From: a virus
Virus record (IMG/VR): IMGVR_UViG_3300045988_137393
Direction: 5' to 3' (one strand)
DNA: 64,000 nt
Shown: in pieces, positions 2,359 through 56,048 of the stretch
How positions within the stretch are numbered: position 1 is the stretch's first letter
Layout: the number at the start of each line of letters is the position of its first letter
Notes under the pieces: model-generated
The model's input: only the letters and a program-made list of their open reading frames with translations
What the model was told of the DNA's origin: nothing
The model's database searches: none
Position numbers and translations under genes: made by a program

Positions 2359-5300
2359 TTATCTTCTTACTCCTTTGGCATAAGTTGCTTGGTTAATCTT
2401 TCTCACAACATTTTCAGCCTGTTTCTGAGCAACACCTTCCATCTGCTTAACAATCTTGTCTGTAGCGACACCTTCAACAATCGTTCTGTTGTCGATTTGA
2501 TAAGTAGGAGATTGGGATGAAACTTTCTCAATAGGAATGTTCTTCAGATTGCCAATAATAGAATCAATCTGTGGAATAACAGGCTTAAAATTCAACAATG
2601 CTTGCGTCTGTTCCTTAGAAAGTACAGCTTCGCCACGTTGTAAGAAACTAATACCATCTTCACCAGAAAGTTTAACAAGATCCTTAATCACACCGCCAGT
2701 TGAGAACGAAGCGTCTTTTATAAGTTTCTTGAGAGCTGAAGCAATTTTCTCTCTATCATTCTTACCAGACAAATCACTTTTTACAGATACACCAAGTTTC
2801 TTCGCAAGAGCAACTTCATTAGCTATACTCAGAACTTGTTTATGCTGTTTATCATAAAGATACTGATTAAGAGCACCGTAATACGATTTCTTGTGTGTTG
2901 CCGAATCTGAATGCTTAGATATCCATTCTGTAATATCACTTGCTTTCTTTTTGAGTTCATACAATTTCTGTTGCTTATCGGTATTGTTACTTCCTGAAGA
3001 ACCAGAACCGTTTCCGCTTGAAGTTCCTGAATCGTTTGATGATCCAATACCTTGTGTGTCTGTAACTTTTGTCTCTGCATACTTGGCACTTGCTTCAGCG
3101 GCTCTGTCAGCAGCATCACAAATAGATTGCCACGAAGATGCAATCAAACTAAGTTGTGCTGTAATGTTTGGAATGTTAGAAGATAATGTGCTTGCATAAT
3201 CACCTACAGCGTTTCCACCCTTTTCCCAAGCATTCACAATGTACGATGATATATCATATCCAGTATCCTTTGCGATTTTCTCAATATTAGATGCAACCTG
3301 TGAAGAGTTAGCATTTACATATGTGAGAGCATCAGAGAAAACTTTATCTGTATCTTTCAGGTAGTCTTCAGCTTGTTTTTTGCTATTTTCAAGCATCTTA
3401 TCGAGAGCATCTTCCTGATCGGAAACAGAATGATCGTACAACATGTCCGATCTATCTTTCTGTGCGTCTTGAAGATCGGATTTAAGTTGTTGTAATTTCT
3501 TCCGATTTTCTTCAGAATCGTCGCCTTCCAAAGCCGCAATCTGCTTTTCTAACTTAGCGATATTTTTATTAGAATCAGCTAACTTATCATTCCACTCTTT
3601 TAAGGACTTGTCTGTTTCTAACAATTCCTTTTTCTTCGAAATTGCTTCTTCCAAAGCATTATTCTGCGCATCTAATCCTTGCTTTACATAAGCAGCTAAC
3701 GACTTCTTCGCTTCATTAGCAGACTTGATAGAATCACGCTGACCTTGCTGATAAGTTCTCAACTTAGAGTTGTAATCGTTAAGACCAATTTTGCCCTCAT
3801 TATACATCTCATTCAAATCAGCAATAGCATCTTTGTACTTCTGAGCCTCAGCAAGATATGTATCATAATTCTGAGCGGTCAATCCCATAGCAGTAATACC
3901 ATCCTGCGTAATCATTCCCGTATCACTGTCAAACAGATTGTCAGAATCAAGCATGTCAATTAAGAAATCTGTCTCGTCCGTGATGTCTCCAAGCTTATCA
4001 AGTAACTCGTCAAAACGATCAAACTTCAACTCATTGATAGACTTTTGAAACTCCGCAAGTTCTTGCTCATCCTGTTGAATAGATTCATAGACACCATTTA
4101 ATGCTTCTTGTGCTTCATACCATTCATCGCTACCAAACTTAATCGTAGATAATTTCTTTGCAAGTTCTTCAGCTTCTTCCTGTTTAAGCTGCATATCAGA
4201 CTTAACGGCATCTGCTTGACGTGTATAATAAGCTTCACCTATTAACAGACCTTTTGCTTCAGCTATACTAAGAGAATTGGAAACAGCGTTCTTTCTCTGC
4301 TCAATCAGCCCGGCTTTATTGTCATATCTTGCCTGTACCTCATCAAAGTGATCTTTCCTAGTCTGACGCACATTAGAGGTATGATCCTCTTTAGCCTGAT
4401 TATAATTATCAGTTGCGGTATTCTTTGCAAGAAGATATTCATTATGTGCTATGCACTTTTTCCTAAGAGTGTCATTTTCAATCTTGTTAATAAGATTATA
4501 CGAAATTGACTTATTGGATTTTAAATTACTCTTAATAGAATTAAATTCATTTTGAGTAAGACCAATGTTTTTAGCTTTTGTTTTTTTAAGAGACTTTGTA
4601 AGAGAACTCTTATTGGATTTATAACTCTTTGTTGCACCAGTATAAGCAGTTTTTGAAGCTGATAACTGGCTATTGTAGTTTTTAATAATCTGTTTATACA
4701 GATTGTCAATATCAGACGTACCGATTTTCTTTGTTGGATTAAATGTAAGATTACCTACCTTGGCATTCAGAATATCCATCTTTGTTCCAAGTTTTTCAAT
4801 CTTATCAGAAGCACTGTCAATCGGGTTGTTCGCTAAAGTCTCATATAAATCCTTTAACTGATCCGTAAGACTGGTAACCTGTTCCTTGCAAGATTTTGCC
4901 TTTTCATACCAAGTCTGATAATCTTTCATGGCATTTTTCAGGTTTTCATTTTTGATAGTCTGGATTCCATCAGCGTCCAATGTACCATTACGGATAAGTT
5001 TCTTGTAATGTTCCAGTGTCTTGGATGATACACCTTTTTTGACCTTTTTTACATTCTTTCCGCTGCTAGAAGATGTAGATGTTGCATTGTTGATTTTGCT
5101 AAAACGTGAACCAGATACAAAATCCTTACGAGATGAAAGCTTGGAAACTCTTACAGATGCGCCAGTATGAGGGGATTCAATAAACTTACCGTCTCCACCA
5201 TAAATACCTACATGTGTGATGTTGTTTTTGCTTCCAAAGAATACTAAGTCACCAGCTTGCAAATTTTTCTTCGATGTGATTTTTGTCCCCATCTTAGCCT

Positions 5301-47756: not shown

Positions 47757-50366
47757 TTAACAGTTTTTTGAAAAACATTTTAGCAAATTTGATGAATTTA
47801 TACTGTATAATACCTTCATTAACAATGATTTATTTTTATTAAGGACAGAAGATATTGATTTTTGATTTCGAATTGAACCAGGAAGAATTTTAAAACAACG
47901 ATCAATCATCCAAGAAAACAACCCAAGATAATTCTTAGATATTTTAATTGATTTCACTTCATAAATCATGTCATCAAAATCTTTTCTAAGCAATAAATAA
48001 TCATCATTCTCTGCATCATCGTTTATTTCATATAATTTTAATGAATATTTTGCTATAATTTCCTCAACCTTTCTACAAGTACGAATATTACTTTTCATTT
48101 CATATTTAACAAAAAAATGACTCATTGGCAGAGTTGTATCTGTATTATGAAACTTCATTAAATCCAAATCGTATAAGTAATTCATAGGACATTTTAAACT
48201 TTCGTTTATGTATTTTTCATTAAAACCTCTTTTGATTATTTTCCAAAACGAAGGATAAAGATTTGTTTTAATATCCATATCATCTTTTATTCTTTTGATT
48301 TCACCAGTTAAGTCGATGTCGAATCTTCTCTTTGCGTTATCAATAGCGACTTGAGCCAAAACACTTAATATACATACATAGTCAACATACTTTTGGTCAT
48401 CAAAATTACATGCATATGTTTGAGCTATTTGAGCTAAGTTGCTTGATTCGCCAATATCCAACTGAGATTTTGCTAAATTATTGTCAATTCCAGCATAATC
48501 GTCCATTGATTTACCATATATATTTTTCTCTTTTGGAATGTTATTTTTGATGGTAGGATAATTTTGATAGCATTTTCTCGCATGTTCTACAATATCACAT
48601 TGATTTGTTGTATACCCACTATCGGAATCTTGATCACTTCCATTGTTTCTATCCTGAAAATCTGTACCATTCATATTTACTGCAACGCACTGTTTTCCAA
48701 GGTTAAAATATTTTTCAAGATTTTTATGGTATATATTGTGAAGATATGTAAGATTGTTTTTACTATTAAAAGGACTTCTAAAGAAAGCTAGATATTCACC
48801 ACTATTAAATCTTTCAGTGTAACATTGAATTGTATTGCTTTCAGCAAAAAATGTGTCATCATTATCAACGTCAGACTCATTTCCTGTGGCAGCATATAAA
48901 AGCATTGCATATGGAGATCCAACTATTACTAAATTTTCAGCATTTTGAATAATACGTCCACTTTTCATATTTAACACATATCCTTTAATAATAGCTTTTT
49001 TTCTGTCACGAAAATATGAACTCCTTACAAAATCTGGATTTTGATTACACAAAGCAATTAAAACTTCGTAATCATTTGAAAAGTTTTTATTCTTCTCAAG
49101 ATATTTCAAAAACTCAGAATTGTCTTGTTTGAGTTTATTGATATACTCAACACTTTCCTTTACAACATTTGGCATTATTTTTTCATCAAGAGAGTTTACC
49201 ATTTGGTAGCTCATTCTCTGAACTTCTCCAAGTTTACTTTCATGTGCAGTTTTCACAATACCAAACATACAGCCGTTTTCATAAACTCGATCACACCAAT
49301 ATTCATACGACTTATCAAATTTCAACCATTTCATAGCATTGTCAGTTGTGATCAATTCAATATCCTTAACAAAATGTTCTACTCCAAACATATCTTTTAC
49401 AGTAGCAGAATAGTAATTCTCTCCAAAATAGTCTTTGAAAAATTGCTGGATATTTGTGCTAAAAGCTGCCATTTTACAAAAATGATGTCGTAATAATATA
49501 TATCCATTTCCCCAACTTGGGAAGATACTAGAATCAATTAACGCCTGTCCGTCAAACATCGTGTTCTTCAACTCGTAATTATCAATGTGTTTTGCATAGC
49601 AATGTTTGTTTTCATCTGTCTCAATACTAACTACTTTAGTAAAAAATGATCTATCCACATCTTTTAATATTAAAATATTCTTGGGATTAATTTTGACTTT
49701 ACCAACGACGGCACTGGATATGAGAGGAGCATAAGCACTAATTTCGACTGTAGGAGAATTCCTTTTAGGAAGTCGAATGCCCATATACAAAAATTTAATT
49801 GCTTTTTTATAAAGGCGATCACATATAAACATACACGAGCCTTTTTTTGCTTTTCCTGTACTTCTGTAAAGCATTTTGTAATGAATAGTTTCTCGTTTTA
49901 TGATATCACCGTTTTTCTTTCTGGTAATATATTCAACATTTACACCTTCATTATAAAACAATGTTCTTATTTCTTCTTTTGTGTGTTTGTGATATTTGTC
50001 TTTGTTCTTATTTGCTTCCTGAAATAATTGTGAAAGTTTTTTACGTTTGTTCCTTTTCTTTTGAATCTGACTATTATAGCCATATGATTTTGCAAGCTTA
50101 TATTCAGTTCTCGCATCTCTTGCGACTTTTTGTAAATGTGAAATCTCTTCATCGTAAGAACGAGAACCAAAATTAAATTCCAAACAAATTAAATCTCGTG
50201 TAGATTCTTCTTTCCATACCTTTAATCCATTTTCATTTAAAAAGTCACTAAAAAGGCTATTGGTAAACATCGCATCTTTATACTCATAATGATCTCTGAC
50301 ACCATTATTATACTCATAAAGGGTGCTTGCTTCAATATTCTTTATTTTAATTCCATATTCACTCAT
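47757..50366 (-). CDS. Large early protein, candidate YonO-like single-subunit (two-barrel) RNA polymerase
   Basis: 869-aa ORF. The segment ...LAFFRSPFNS...AVNMNGTDFQDRNNGSDQDSDSGY ends in a DxDxD triad (DQDSD, 48621-48635). An RxP element precedes it, as in YonO and RdRP-type polymerases. This is motif-level evidence only. Confidence 0.4.
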   Translation of the reverse strand: MSEYGIKIKNIEASTLYEYNNGVRDHYEYKDAMFTNSLFSDFLNENGLKVWKEESTRDLICLEFNFGSRSYDEEISHLQKVARDARTEYKLAKSYGYNSQIQKKRNKRKKLSQLFQEANKNKDKYHKHTKEEIRTLFYNEGVNVEYITRKKNGDIIKRETIHYKMLYRSTGKAKKGSCMFICDRLYKKAIKFLYMGIRLPKRNSPTVEISAYAPLISSAVVGKVKINPKNILILKDVDRSFFTKVVSIETDENKHCYAKHIDNYELKNTMFDGQALIDSSIFPSWGNGYILLRHHFCKMAAFSTNIQQFFKDYFGENYYSATVKDMFGVEHFVKDIELITTDNAMKWLKFDKSYEYWCDRVYENGCMFGIVKTAHESKLGEVQRMSYQMVNSLDEKIMPNVVKESVEYINKLKQDNSEFLKYLEKNKNFSNDYEVLIALCNQNPDFVRSSYFRDRKKAIIKGYVLNMKSGRIIQNAENLVIVGSPYAMLLYAATGNESDVDNDDTFFAESNTIQCYTERFNSGEYLAFFRSPFNSKNNLTYLHNIYHKNLEKYFNLGKQCVAVNMNGTDFQDRNNGSDQDSDSGYTTNQCDIVEHARKCYQNYPTIKNNIPKEKNIYGKSMDDYAGIDNNLAKSQLDIGESSNLAQIAQTYACNFDDQKYVDYVCILSVLAQVAIDNAKRRFDIDLTGEIKRIKDDMDIKTNLYPSFWKIIKRGFNEKYINESLKCPMNYLYDLDLMKFHNTDTTLPMSHFFVKYEMKSNIRTCRKVEEIIAKYSLKLYEINDDAENDDYLLLRKDFDDMIYEVKSIKISKNYLGLFSWMIDRCFKILPGSIRNQKSISSVLNKNKSLLMKVLYSINSSNLLKCFSKNC

Positions 50367-54539: not shown

Positions 54540-55260
54540 TAGGTTGAGATTCTTGAGTGTGGCTTTTGATGGAAAAATCGTTATCGGTGAAAACGCTTAT
54601 ATATAAGGAAGAAAATAGGATTGTTGGTGTGATTTTTGGTAAGATAGAAGTTTGAAATTTAGGGGTTGAAGTGAGTGAAATGGTTGAAAAATAATGGTTT
54701 TGACGATATGGGGTACGATAAGTGGTTTGAGATGGTAAAATTGGGATTTTGCTTGATTTTGTTGGAAATTTTGATGATTGGGGAAGGATGGATTTTTGAG
54801 TTGGTGTATGGAATAACCAGCTATAGGGTTTACTGCATTTCCAGTCCATCTAATTAGTTTTAACTACCCCGGCTAGGCAAAAACAATGGATAATAGATAT
54901 ATATTATACATTGTTTTTCTGATCCGATTTTCACAACAAATAGTATTAAAAACTATGTGTAGTAGTAGTTATTGGTTCTATGACATATAGTTTAATATTG
55001 TTATAATCCAATATAATCTTAATATCGTTTCCATTCACCACTTTTATATCAAAATCAATAATTTTTAGGTTCACATTCTCCACTTTATACCATAAAACCT
55101 GTCTAAAAATGGGACAGTCCACCACCACACAAAACCAACCTATAATTCTATTGTTAAAATTTCACAATAACACACACCATAACCACACTAAAACTACACA
55201 TATTTCACAAAACTATAAAATCTTATGAAAAAGACTTGAATATCTCACAAAAAAGGACTA
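54540..55260. other. Strand-asymmetric non-coding region (C-poor GT block, AT-rich centre, G-poor CA block): candidate replication origin
   Basis: 54560-54830 has almost no C on the plus strand, with repeated GGTTGA/TTTTGA-type words. 55130-55260 has almost no G, with CCACAC(A/T)AAAAC-type words that are their approximate reverse complements. The interval between them is AT-rich. Confidence 0.35.
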
Positions 55261-55906
55261 TTATACAGTTGTCCGAAGGGATAGGACATAAAACAAGTCC
55301 CATTGTTAGCACATCTGTAAAGAGGACACCGAACCTCACTTGACATCATTAGTTAAGATAGAACCTATCCAAGAATGATGTAAAACCTCACGGCTACTTG
55401 TACAGCCATTCCAAAGCGGATTAAAAAAGCTATCATATATAGCAACGTACAGGGCACTTGATAGCAGTTATTAAGAGGTTGAATTGATACCTTAATGAAA
55501 CAATTCAGTAAAGCCACACTATAGCAGGCACGTGAATAGTAGGAACGATAGAAACCTCATTAGTAGTCAAGTGGCTACTAATTACCATTCCGGCGATGTG
55601 TAACCGGCAAGACAGCAACTCATAAACGTATTAAATAATCTTTACAAGTGTATCACTTGTTTTGTGGTAAAAACATTAAATTACATAACAGGTTTATTAT
55701 ACCACATTCAAAGAGGTTGTTTCAACCTAACAAGATTAAATAGTACAATACCGCTTTATATGTCAAGCGTTAAAAGTATGGCAATATGACATAAGTATAG
55801 CAGGGTACGCAAGCTATACAGTGTAATTGTAAATTATTACAATAAGCACATTCCGCACATTACAATAATAAGCCACCAAGTAAACATGAAAAATGTTGAA
55901 TTATCC
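55260..55906 (+). ncRNA. Large (~0.65 kb) structured leader/ncRNA candidate (N4) ending in a tRNA-like element
   Basis: No ORF. The module AAACCUCA-hairpin-CCAUUCC is repeated (55383-55412 and 55552-55591). A possible H-type pseudoknot involves ATTAAG 55470-75 with CTTAAT 55491-96, and TGAATTG 55480-86 with CAATTCA 55501-07. Many 6-8 bp hairpins are present. Confidence 0.5.
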
Positions 55907-55994
55907 AGTCGCATTGAGCAGGCTCAGTCTACGCTTTTTTAAGCGGTTGTGAATTAAGCACATTTGAGAAGTGGTTCGATTCCACTTGCGACTT
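55907..55994 (+). ncRNA. tRNA-like element A (88 nt): canonical acceptor and T arm, aberrant centre
   Basis: Acceptor AGTCGCA/TGCGACT (7 bp) and T arm AGTGG-TTCGATT-CCACT are canonical. The interior holds GAG-CAGG-CTC, CGCTT-TTTT-AAGCG and TGTG-AATTAAG-CACA hairpins in place of normal D and anticodon arms. Confidence 0.5.
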
Positions 55995-56048
55995 TACCAA
56001 AAAAATAATTATATTGCACTCATGCGTTAAATGAGAGAAGGAGACATT

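Follow-up and report, generated by a model that had tools for sequence, protein, structure and literature searches.

RNAs as large and complex as the ~640-nt phage RNA described here are few, and to our knowledge only a handful have been recognized in bacteria and phages (rRNA, RNase P, group I/II introns, OLE, ROOL and GOLLD). The known giant RNAs have each proved biochemically remarkable. ROOL and GOLLD are borne by phages and prophages, span 580 to >800 nt, fold with many junctions and with pseudoknots, lie beside tRNAs, and are known without any protein partner (PMC5737381, PMC12286853). The RNA presented here resembles GOLLD, in which the 3' region is conserved and the 5' region variable, in that its 3' domain is 93–99% identical in most relatives while its 5' cores are of three types, A, B and C, which are exchanged between phages. 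Unlike ROOL and GOLLD, which adjoin real tRNAs, it adjoins a tRNA mimic, heads an operon behind a predicted sigma-70 promoter, and is limited to one group of ~160-kb human-gut phages. Similarity to either class is undetectable by Rfam models at E ≤ 10, and we do not count it as a member.

A second comparison comes from plant mitochondria, where t-elements, non-canonical tRNA-like folds with a GGTTCRANYCC T-arm motif, flank mRNAs and guide the RNase P and RNase Z cuts that form mRNA 5' and 3' ends, a role also open to reduced acceptor-like stem-loops (PMC1920247). As with t-elements and mitochondrial tRNA punctuation, two elements bracket one ORF at the phage locus, and the downstream element overlaps the stop codon in both. 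The t-elements are organellar and their cleavage is known, whereas the present case is from a bacteriophage, has a giant non-coding RNA as its upstream product, and has its cleavage predicted from sequence. MALAT1–mascRNA and the phage P1 C4 and P4 CI RNAs reportedly also gain a mature end through RNase P at a tRNA-like structure; the P1 and P4 RNAs are antisense regulators of <100 nt, and MALAT1 is eukaryotic. The RNA described here would share with these the proposed end-making by RNase P, with unrelated sequences. We know of no earlier phage example of mitochondrion-like tRNA punctuation dicing a polycistronic transcript.

Layout of the locus

The window (the whole stretch of DNA analysed, 64,000 nt of IMG/VR record IMGVR_UViG_3300045988_137393) contains the locus at the point where leftward genes give way to rightward genes and the GC skew turns. 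Repeats are present in this intergenic strand-switch region. An original prediction, made by reading the sequence, had described an ORF-free interval that precedes the rightward operon, with a large pseudoknotted RNA running into a tRNA-like element. The interval indeed holds no ORF >50 aa on either strand (longest ORFs ≤50 aa), and the arrangement now has comparative support from ~75 related loci. Its parts are as follows.

55236–55264, + strand: sigma-70/SigA-type promoter (TTGAAT, 17 nt, TATTAT; promoter scan)
55270–55906, + strand: large structured RNA, ~637 nt (conservation, covariation, G-U versus A-C counts)
55907–55994, + strand: TLE1, the upstream tRNA-like element, 88 nt (ARAGORN; covariance model R1)
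56019–56051, + strand: hairpin CUCAU-GCGUUAA-AUGAG directly before the RBS GAAGGAG (56037–43) and ATG 56049
56049–56846, + strand: gene for a conserved 265-aa protein, always adjoining the large RNA
56845–56899, + strand: TLE2, a second tRNA-like element, overlapping the UAG stop codon (compensatory lineage differences, acceptor and T stems)

An A-rich tract precedes the promoter, whose predicted start is at ~55270, and the motif CTTGnnA-17-TAnnnT occupies an unchanged position in those related lineages for which sequence upstream was inspected; we infer that transcription proceeds from it. The large RNA is kept in all loci whose sequence reaches far enough upstream. Within its pairings, read on the + strand, G-U combinations number 74 and A-C combinations 11, an excess which identifies + as the RNA strand. 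The L014/L079 lineage has a small ORF and a strong terminator separating the RNA core from the promoter, an arrangement that simple co-transcription does not readily explain.

The RBS and ORF anticipated after the 88-nt element are also in place, the true gene start being ATG 56049 (MLKSEKFY) and not the ATG 56031 of the program-made ORF listing, and the hairpin before the RBS is conserved, with compensatory changes in three relatives (L006, L021, L027). Among 80 protein clusters, followed to 38% identity, the 265-aa protein gave no name and no Pfam or PHROG match, two truncated or fused entries excepted, and its AlphaFold model (pLDDT 90.8) had no fold match in the PDB. Linkage of the RNA to this gene is absolute in every locus that was found independently by DNA pattern.

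Structure of the large RNA

The RNA divides into a 5' domain (55270–55660) and a 3' domain (55660–55906). Covariation analysis on homologs, which had been proposed as a check, revealed 73 bp in 15 helices in the 5' half, 98.4% paired across 18 relatives, with compensatory (double) changes in 37 of the 73 pairs. None of 500 shuffles paired as well, and slid controls reached 23–41%. The structure exceeds chance, a verdict that comes from the covariation rather than from folding energy, for which the region has a z of only −2.2. The helices of the 5' domain are:

55270–55300, + strand: two 5'-terminal hairpins (GUCC-GAAG-GGA(U); GGAC 55284–87 / GUCC 55297–300)
55322–55443, + strand: hairpins H1–H6 (per-helix covariation counts)
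55322–25 / 55334–37, + strand: H1
55339–44 / 55352–57, + strand: H2
55366–69 / 55377–80, + strand: H3
55392–95 / 55404–07, + strand: H4, invariant
55408–11 / 55418–21, + strand: H5
55429–32 / 55440–43, + strand: H6
55457–55508, + strand: most conserved core, H7 and PK1
55457–63 / 55469–75, + strand: H7, CUUGAUA / UAUUAAG
55476–78 / 55490–92, + strand: stem 1 of PK1, an H-type pseudoknot, AGG / CCU
55479–86 / 55501–08, + strand: stem 2 of PK1, UUGAAUUG / CAAUUCAG
55513–55607, + strand: H8, H9, H10 and PK2 (covariation)
55513–15 / 55527–29, + strand: H8
55531–33 / 55545–47, + strand: stem 1 of PK2, a second H-type pseudoknot, CGU / ACG
55541–43 / 55555–57, + strand: stem 2 of PK2, AGG / CCU
55559–68 / 55573–82, + strand: H9
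55590–93 / 55604–07, + strand: H10
55645–55668, + strand: H11, CAAGUG / CACUUG, then a U-run (the stem covaries)

Direct sequence reading shows the second 5'-terminal hairpin covarying across lineages (GGAC/GUCC, GGGG/CCCC, GGGC/GCCC), and pairs changed on both sides occur in every one of H1–H6 except the invariant H4. The core formed by H7 and PK1 has 96.9% of its cells paired and double changes in 14 of 17 pairs (alignment A8, 15 gap-free sequences); 0 of 500 shuffles match this, and slid controls reach 26–44%. PK2 is less secure than PK1, since each of its stems has a single doubly changed pair (CGU/ACG to CGG/CCG and AGG/CCU to AAG/CUU). Candidates for long-range helices closing the 5' domain (GUUaGC/GCAAC, ACGU/ACGU, GCACAUC/GAUGUGU, and RNAalifold columns 7–14 with 373–380) fit the alignment but show no covariation.

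Several pairings of the original prediction were thereby revised. For the pseudoknot, stem 2 (TGAATTG/CAATTCA) stands, with double changes in 6 of 7 pairs; stem 1 (ATTAAG/CTTAAT) was wrong, because ATTAAG belongs to the covarying hairpin CTTGATA/TATTAAG, and the true stem 1 is AGG 55476–78 with CCT 55490–92. Of three further stems, ATTAGTAG/CTACTAAT survives as helix 13, while ACATCATT/AATGATGT and GCTATCA/TGATAGC are broken in relatives and give way to the covarying local hairpins H2/H3 and H6/H7. The proposed module, AAACCTCA, a hairpin and CCATTCC, is present exactly twice (55383–55412 and 55552–55591) where chance predicts zero, but the repeat is not conserved as a unit: in relatives, the CCATTCC of the first copy covaries with its own partner (H5), and the CCT of the second is a pseudoknot strand.

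Two candidate signals were rejected. H11 with its U-run is terminator-like in this genome alone, the U-run being missing in the L014, L021 and L031 lineages and the GUGG of the hairpin tail being a strand of the next helix; 55645–55668 consists of covarying helix strands with a lineage-specific U-run and is not a conserved terminator. Likewise, a 'second promoter', TATTATAC at 55695, is a covarying helix strand and not a conserved signal.

In the 3' domain, few pairs can be tested by covariation owing to its high identity, and compensatory changes were seen by eye in L014, L079, L011, L100 and L021. Its features are:

55664–55906, + strand: 3' domain (compensatory changes seen by eye)
55664–69 / 55700–05, + strand: helix GUGGUA / UACCAC
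55714–19 / 55723–28, + strand: helix AGGUUG / CAACCU
55752–56 / 55765–69, + strand: helix CGCUU / AAGCG
55795–801 / 55813–19, + strand: helix GUAUAGC / GCUAUAC
55883–87 / 55893–97, + strand: helix AACAU / AUGUU

The 37 compensatory changes, the two pseudoknots and the G-U excess on the + strand are signatures of single-stranded RNA. We accordingly give almost no credence to a reading without any functional RNA, in which signals in the DNA itself (packaging sites, protein-binding sites or cruciforms, for example) would account for the conservation, even though an intergenic strand switch with repeats is a setting that would suit it.

tRNA-like elements and a candidate ribozyme

The 88-nt element with perfect acceptor and T stems was borne out, and ARAGORN calls it 'tRNA-???'. 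TLE1 comprises a 7-bp acceptor, a D-like hairpin whose loop is CAGG, a junction stem of 3 bp (UCU/AGA) bearing a U-loop hairpin and a second hairpin, and the T arm GGUUCGAUUCC; its discriminator is U, and CCA is not encoded. Covariance model R1, searched against 77 sources, found one TLE1 upstream of the gene in 73 of the 73 loci that hold this stretch. The fold is 97.6% paired by cell, with double changes in 20 of 28 pairs; the acceptor is 100% paired with covariation in 7 of 7 pairs, and the T stem 99% paired. TLE1 is thus a genuine tRNA-shaped fold.

TLE1 shares with canonical tRNAs a 7-bp acceptor stacked on a T stem of 5 bp and a GGUUCRANUCC T loop. In place of the canonical 5-bp anticodon stem and 7-nt loop there is a hairpin of 3–6 bp with a loop of 4–8 nt, ARAGORN assigns a 2-base 'anticodon', and the 7-nt anticodon loop is missing in most lineages, while the D-like loop measures 3–4 nt (CAG(G)) instead of 7–11 nt. 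The Rfam tRNA model (RF00005) has no match to TLE1 at its gathering score or at E ≤ 10, nor to the elements of L031, L027, L021 and others; the window's six real tRNAs score 49–69 bits with the tRNA model. Acceptor sequences and discriminators vary freely between lineages, which argues against a specific aminoacylation identity. tmRNA models (RF00023 and relatives) match the T arm alone (13–15 bits), ARAGORN reports no tmRNA, and, unlike in tmRNA, the TLE1 acceptor stem closes the 88-nt unit and not the large RNA. In the L022 lineage TLE1 lacks one hairpin and measures 67 nt, and in L106, the most distant relative, it is reduced to an acceptor/T-arm minihelix, which is the minimal substrate of RNase P and RNase Z.

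The loop of hairpin 1 raises another possibility. It is U-rich in all lineages and a 7-nt UUUUUAA or UUUUUGA in some, ARAGORN calls the L031 element tRNA-Lys(ttt), and tRNA-based counter-measures are established in phages, so TLE1 might itself be the effector, a tRNA decoy or mimic with a tRNA-Lys(UUU)-like U-loop that absorbs a host anticodon nuclease or another tRNA-directed defence. We regard this as improbable given the range of the loop (4–8 nt), the short stem (only 3–6 bp), an anticodon-side half that L106 does without and that the L022 lineage has lost in part, and a TLE2 without any such U-rich hairpin. It is compatible with the punctuation model set out below.

The + strand of the whole window contains only two GGTTCRANTCC motifs. 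TLE2, which was absent from the original prediction, lies downstream of the 265-aa gene and has an acceptor (AGGAUGA 56845–51 / UCAUCCU 56892–98), a T arm (GCAGGG 56873–78 / CCCUGC 56886–91, loop UUCGACU) and an inner hairpin; its acceptor-T stack is 11–13 bp in every lineage that has it (nine lineages). Both elements thus carry the structural hallmark of t-elements, a ~12-bp acceptor-T stack and T loop at functional-RNA boundaries. U-rich trailers follow both TLE1 and TLE2 and neither encodes CCA, which fits RNase Z substrates in Firmicutes. With TLE2, the earlier picture of an RNA fused to a tRNA-like 3' end becomes that of a transcript apparently punctuated by tRNA-like cutting signals.

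In four lineages (L021, L022, L023, L090), the TLE2 site is taken instead by a 12-bp hairpin and a hammerhead type III candidate. The L021 candidate has each nucleotide of the type III hammerhead core (RF00008), in the order GUC, stem I, CUGAUGAG, stem II, CGAAAC and stem III, and is absent from the window; it is sub-threshold, scoring 23.6 bits where the Rfam gathering score is 48.5 (E = 0.0046 over the 191 nt searched). Its stems II and III have 2 and 4 bp, and it is almost invariant, so that covariation lends it no support.

We put a probability of roughly 0.55 on a reading in which the early transcript is cut by RNase P and RNase Z at the tRNA mimics, releasing a giant RNA that acts in trans. 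The locus would open an early transcription unit of the phage; host RNA polymerase would start at ~55270 at the sigma-70-type promoter, and the pseudoknotted ~640-nt RNA would be made first. TLE1 would be a non-decoding mimic of the acceptor/T-arm surface that host tRNA-maturation enzymes read. An RNase P cut at 55906/55907 would give the giant RNA its 3' end, a cut after 55994 by RNase Z or an equivalent enzyme would form an mRNA 5' end protected by the pre-RBS hairpin, and TLE2 would serve likewise on the gene's 3' side. The freed RNA could then act as a stable folded particle, a third 'ornate' phage class beside ROOL and GOLLD. The overlap of TLE2 with the stop codon counts against this model, as an RNase P cut there would leave the mRNA without a complete stop. 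If the reading is true, the tRNA-mimic brackets and the hammerhead swap would be the first phage tRNA punctuation that we know of.

No separate promoter is evident for the 265-aa gene, so the large RNA could simply be a long leader. Its place is invariably after the sole recognisable promoter and before the first gene, its linkage to that gene is absolute in independently found loci, and in this genome it contains a terminator-like hairpin and U-run (55645–55668); on these grounds it might be a cis-acting leader of the early operon, a read-through/antitermination device or sensor, with the TLEs as incidental stabilisers. However, the U-run is not kept in other lineages and the hairpin tail contributes to a different helix, the cis-acting leaders known from bacteria are smaller by several-fold, and two TLEs, with a ribozyme candidate in the corresponding position, suggest that RNA and message are physically separated. 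We consider such a leader rather unlikely.

Distribution and known families

The proposed Rfam check, with 4227 models including GOLLD and ROOL, did not match the large RNA: at three sensitivities no family was found (E ≤ 10 over 54800–56200), and on this count the RNA is previously uncatalogued. GOLLD (RF01998) and ROOL (RF03087) had no match in the window, in 54800–56200 (E ≤ 10) or in seven divergent relatives (E ≤ 5), and neither RNase P RNA, group I/II introns nor other large Rfam RNAs matched at E ≤ 10. The original likeness to GOLLD therefore holds as an analogy and not as membership, the GOLLD model giving no match even at E ≤ 10.

Roughly half of the relatives carry 4–5 co-oriented DnaA boxes (TTATCCACA) 100–200 nt upstream of the promoter. 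These boxes, and the position of the locus at the gene-direction switch and GC-skew turn, would suit an RNA associated with a replication origin, an R-loop or structured pre-primer comparable to ColE1 RNA II. This is highly improbable in our view, as the boxes were not found there in the window itself and in many relatives, all of which retain the RNA, transcription heads away from them, the RNA bears no likeness to a DNA-unwinding or RNase H site, and strict RNA-level covariation extends over 640 nt.

Returning to release by tRNA enzymes, a far-reaching version would make the RNA a third independent giant 'ornate' class forming, as ROOL and GOLLD do, a higher-order RNA-only particle, excised along with the adjoining mRNA from a single early transcript via tRNA-mimic punctuation by host RNase P and RNase Z, with a hammerhead able to replace the mimic; this we advance as a speculation that is unlikely as a whole. 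A new class with two well-supported pseudoknots would offer a tractable case, in abundant human-gut phages and behind a predicted early promoter. The proposed punctuation yields a testable prediction for the association of ROOL and GOLLD with tRNAs, namely co-transcription and excision by tRNA enzymes.

INPHARED holds no match to the region as DNA or to the 265-aa protein, hence no cultured relative is available, and the protein search of representative bacterial genomes (prophages and hosts) was without match. DNA-pattern matches in bacterial genomes numbered 93; among 80 loci drawn from these and tested with R1, only L177, a truncated fragment, scored. A scan of IMG/VR with the PK1-core pattern returned the same phage group and one chance coding-region match only, and the known range of the RNA is this single group of phages.

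A structured RNA upstream of the 265-aa protein gene

We compared about 75 related loci gathered in four ways: 32 IMG/VR loci obtained via the downstream protein, 4 more via a DNA pattern derived from the first tRNA-like element (TLE1), 40 metagenome loci, and 3 from more distant homologues of the downstream protein. A gene-poor stretch of 0.8–1.8 kb precedes the protein gene in every locus with enough upstream sequence, and the interval in the window contains no ORF > 50 aa, in agreement with the original prediction.

Main features of the locus
55270–55906, +, large structured RNA
55907–55994, +, TLE1
56049, +, ATG of the 265-aa gene
56845–56899, +, second tRNA-like element (TLE2), starting where the 265-aa gene has its stop codon, with acceptor stem, T arm (loop UUCGACU) and internal hairpin

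Folding energy alone (z = -2.2 on the + strand, -1.5 on the - strand) is weak evidence, and we therefore relied on comparative data. From a structure-blind MAFFT alignment of 18 sequences with the type-A 5' core (alignment A5), RNAalifold and manual curation yielded 15 helices with 73 pairs, two H-type pseudoknots (PK1 and PK2) among them. Standard pairs fill 98.4% of cells, compensatory double changes occur in 37 of the 73 pairs, and 0 of 500 shuffles reached the observed values; when partners were slid by 1–3 columns as a control, pairing fell to 23–41%. The predicted structured RNA is thus supported by covariation among homologs. Its best-conserved core, hairpin H7 with PK1, aligns without gaps in 15 sequences from six lineages, with double changes in 14/17 pairs (in PK1 stem 1, AGG/CCU becomes CGG/CCG, GGG/CCC or ACG/CGU). 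G-U outnumbers A-C by 74 to 11 in the curated helices, an excess that only a folded + strand would be expected to show, which makes + the RNA strand. We put the probability of a structured RNA on the + strand at about 0.95.

These helices revise several details of the original prediction. Stem 2 of PK1 had been placed correctly and stem 1 in a different register, and the comparison contradicts the proposed stems ACATCATT/AATGATGT and GCTATCA/TGATAGC, whose halves each form part of a separate covarying local hairpin. The motif AAACCTCA-hairpin-CCATTCC, described as a repeated module, does occur twice in the sequence (zero expected by chance); the two copies are not repeat-like in relatives, CCAUUCC of copy 1 being the 5' strand of hairpin H5, which varies jointly with its partner, and CCU of copy 2 being a strand of PK2.

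The 3' domain (55660–55906) is 93–99% identical among most relatives, so that few of its pairs can be tested, and the changes that occur are compensatory.

Compensatory changes in 3'-domain helices
GUGGUA/UACCAC vs GUGAUAG/CUAUCAC
AGGUUG/CAACCU vs GGUUUG/CAAACC
CGCUU/AAGCG vs AGCGU/ACGCU
GUAUAGC/GCUAUAC vs GUAUAAC/GUUAUAC

An apparent second promoter and a U-run after hairpin H11 were rejected as conserved signals, since these helices place both within the structure. Where sequence further upstream was read, the lineages show a sigma-70-type promoter (A-tract, CTTGnnA, 17 nt, TAnnnT) at a constant spacing ahead of the first hairpin, and its position predicts an RNA 5' end near 55270. Candidate long-range helices for closing the 5' domain fit the alignment and show no covariation.

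The nearest kind is that of ROOL and GOLLD, which are phage-borne and lie near tRNAs; RNA-only cages are a ROOL/GOLLD feature (PMC5737381, PMC12286853). The 5' core exists in three interchangeable versions (A, B, C) in mosaic combinations with different 3' domains, resembling GOLLD, with its conserved 3' and variable 5' regions (PMC12286853). No Rfam 15 family matches the large RNA or TLE1, and we found no description in the literature. Pieces of the large RNA may be among the candidate viral structured RNAs that a 2023 catalogue compiled from IMG/VR. We file the large RNA as a new class within the known kind of large ornate phage RNAs.

Two tRNA-like elements

The predicted 88-nt tRNA-like element is called by ARAGORN as 'tRNA-???' with a two-base anticodon, and an RBS and ORF follow it as proposed, the real ORF start being ATG 56049. 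A covariance model built from 21 variants found one TLE1 copy upstream of the gene in 73/73 loci holding that stretch (77 sources searched). Across 27 distinct sequences, 97.6% of cells are paired and 20/28 pairs show double changes, including covariation at 7/7 acceptor-stem pairs, indicating a fold under selection. TLE1 is nevertheless not a decoding tRNA: the Rfam tRNA model gave no match at all to it in the window and relatives, the D loop has only 3–4 nt, a 3-bp stem with two hairpins (one with a U-rich loop of 4–8 nt) replaces the anticodon arm, acceptor sequence and discriminator vary freely, and CCA is not encoded; moreover, the second hairpin is lost in one lineage (67 nt), and the relative furthest away (39% protein identity) keeps no more than an acceptor/T-arm minihelix. 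The parts kept and lost indicate that selection preserves the surface that RNase P, RNase Z and the CCA-adding enzyme read.

TLE2 is found in most lineages, with acceptor and T stems that differ compensatorily and a coaxial stack of 11–13 bp; T-loop motifs on the + strand of the window are only those of TLE1 and TLE2. It was first noticed through weak matches of the TLE1 model in other lineages (E ~0.08; L027 4818–4866 and L037 6253–6293, -). At the TLE2 position, the L021, L022, L023 and L090 lineages carry a 12-bp hairpin, then a hammerhead type III-core sequence.

Hammerhead candidate
L021 4824–4875, candidate minimal hammerhead ribozyme (type III), downstream of the 265-aa gene, full catalytic core (GUC, CUGAUGAG, CGAAAC)

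Its Rfam match (23.6 bits, E = 0.0046) is under the gathering score. Since this one site is occupied by either of two unrelated putative devices for RNA cleavage, we argue that cutting of the transcript here is intended.

Proposed processing of the transcript

We propose that one early transcript would be diced by host tRNA-maturation enzymes into the giant RNA (55270–55906), a small tRNA-like by-product and mRNA, and that the giant RNA would then act in trans. That the two tRNA mimics are processing signals we consider probable; for action in trans, as opposed to a leader role, we see about an even chance. Plant-mitochondrial t-elements work by this kind of cutting (PMC1920247). We found no phage description of such punctuation in the literature.

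A covarying hairpin abuts the RBS of each downstream gene; a small conserved one directly before the RBS of the next gene (56900–56957; ATG 56958) mirrors that at 56019–56035. From what is established about RNase J, a processed 5' end in a Firmicute would need such a hairpin.

Among the difficulties for the proposed mechanism are the following. The TLE2 acceptor stem shares sequence with the UAG codon that ends the 265-aa gene (56844–56851), where an RNase P cut would leave an incomplete stop codon; animal mitochondrial mRNAs have incomplete stop codons. In L079 (~3000–3255) and equivalently in L014/L015, an insertion of ~300 nt between 5' hairpins and RNA core, hence between promoter and core, encodes a 41-aa ORF (MTGKEVVNLITALEKEGMNAEKIIEIIKYIETADPKDPSNN) with its own strong hairpin-plus-U terminator.

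Genome setting

The window comes from a large phage genome and itself carries six tRNA genes (-), a terminase and an 869-aa protein. Neither as DNA nor via the neighbouring protein did the region match GenBank phages; relatives are plentiful in IMG/VR and human-gut metagenomes. Contig OCSG01000004.1 (327,761 bp) contains two copies of the locus separated by 163.5 kb (L067/L068), which points to a concatemer and a genome of ~163.5 kb. No family was found for the 265-aa neighbouring protein, whose confident structure model without known fold gives no functional clue. About 130 nt identical to the L014-type RNA end plus TLE1 occur in a Clostridiales MAG (ERR321576-bin.26, contig NODE_1481; L177 60–250), with identity ending within the T arm and both flanks unrelated; a recombination/integration junction or an assembly chimera may account for it.

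The large RNA sits within a 1.2-kb ORF-poor gap (54850–56048) that marks the leftward-to-rightward gene switch and a GC skew sign change. Where the gene blocks diverge lies an inverted repeat (54879–54918; 20+20 nt, no spacer, 90% complementary). About half of the related phages have 4–5 DnaA boxes in one orientation, 100–200 nt upstream of the RNA promoter (L001 2930–3000, L021 2940–3000, L029 3010–3080, and others), two or three per relative being perfect TTATCCACA and the remainder having one mismatch. The cluster may be a replication origin or may reflect DnaA control of the promoter. Such boxes are absent from 54850–55260 of the window, which has A/C-rich repeats at 55114–55206 instead.

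Gene of the 869-aa protein
47757–50366, -, 869-aa protein distantly related to proteins of Enterocloster phage PMBT24 (there annotated 'RNA-dependent RNA polymerase') and Clostridium phage c-st

This protein may be a single-subunit phage RNA polymerase. The homologue closest to it (MT837385) lies in three pieces spread over 3.5 kb.
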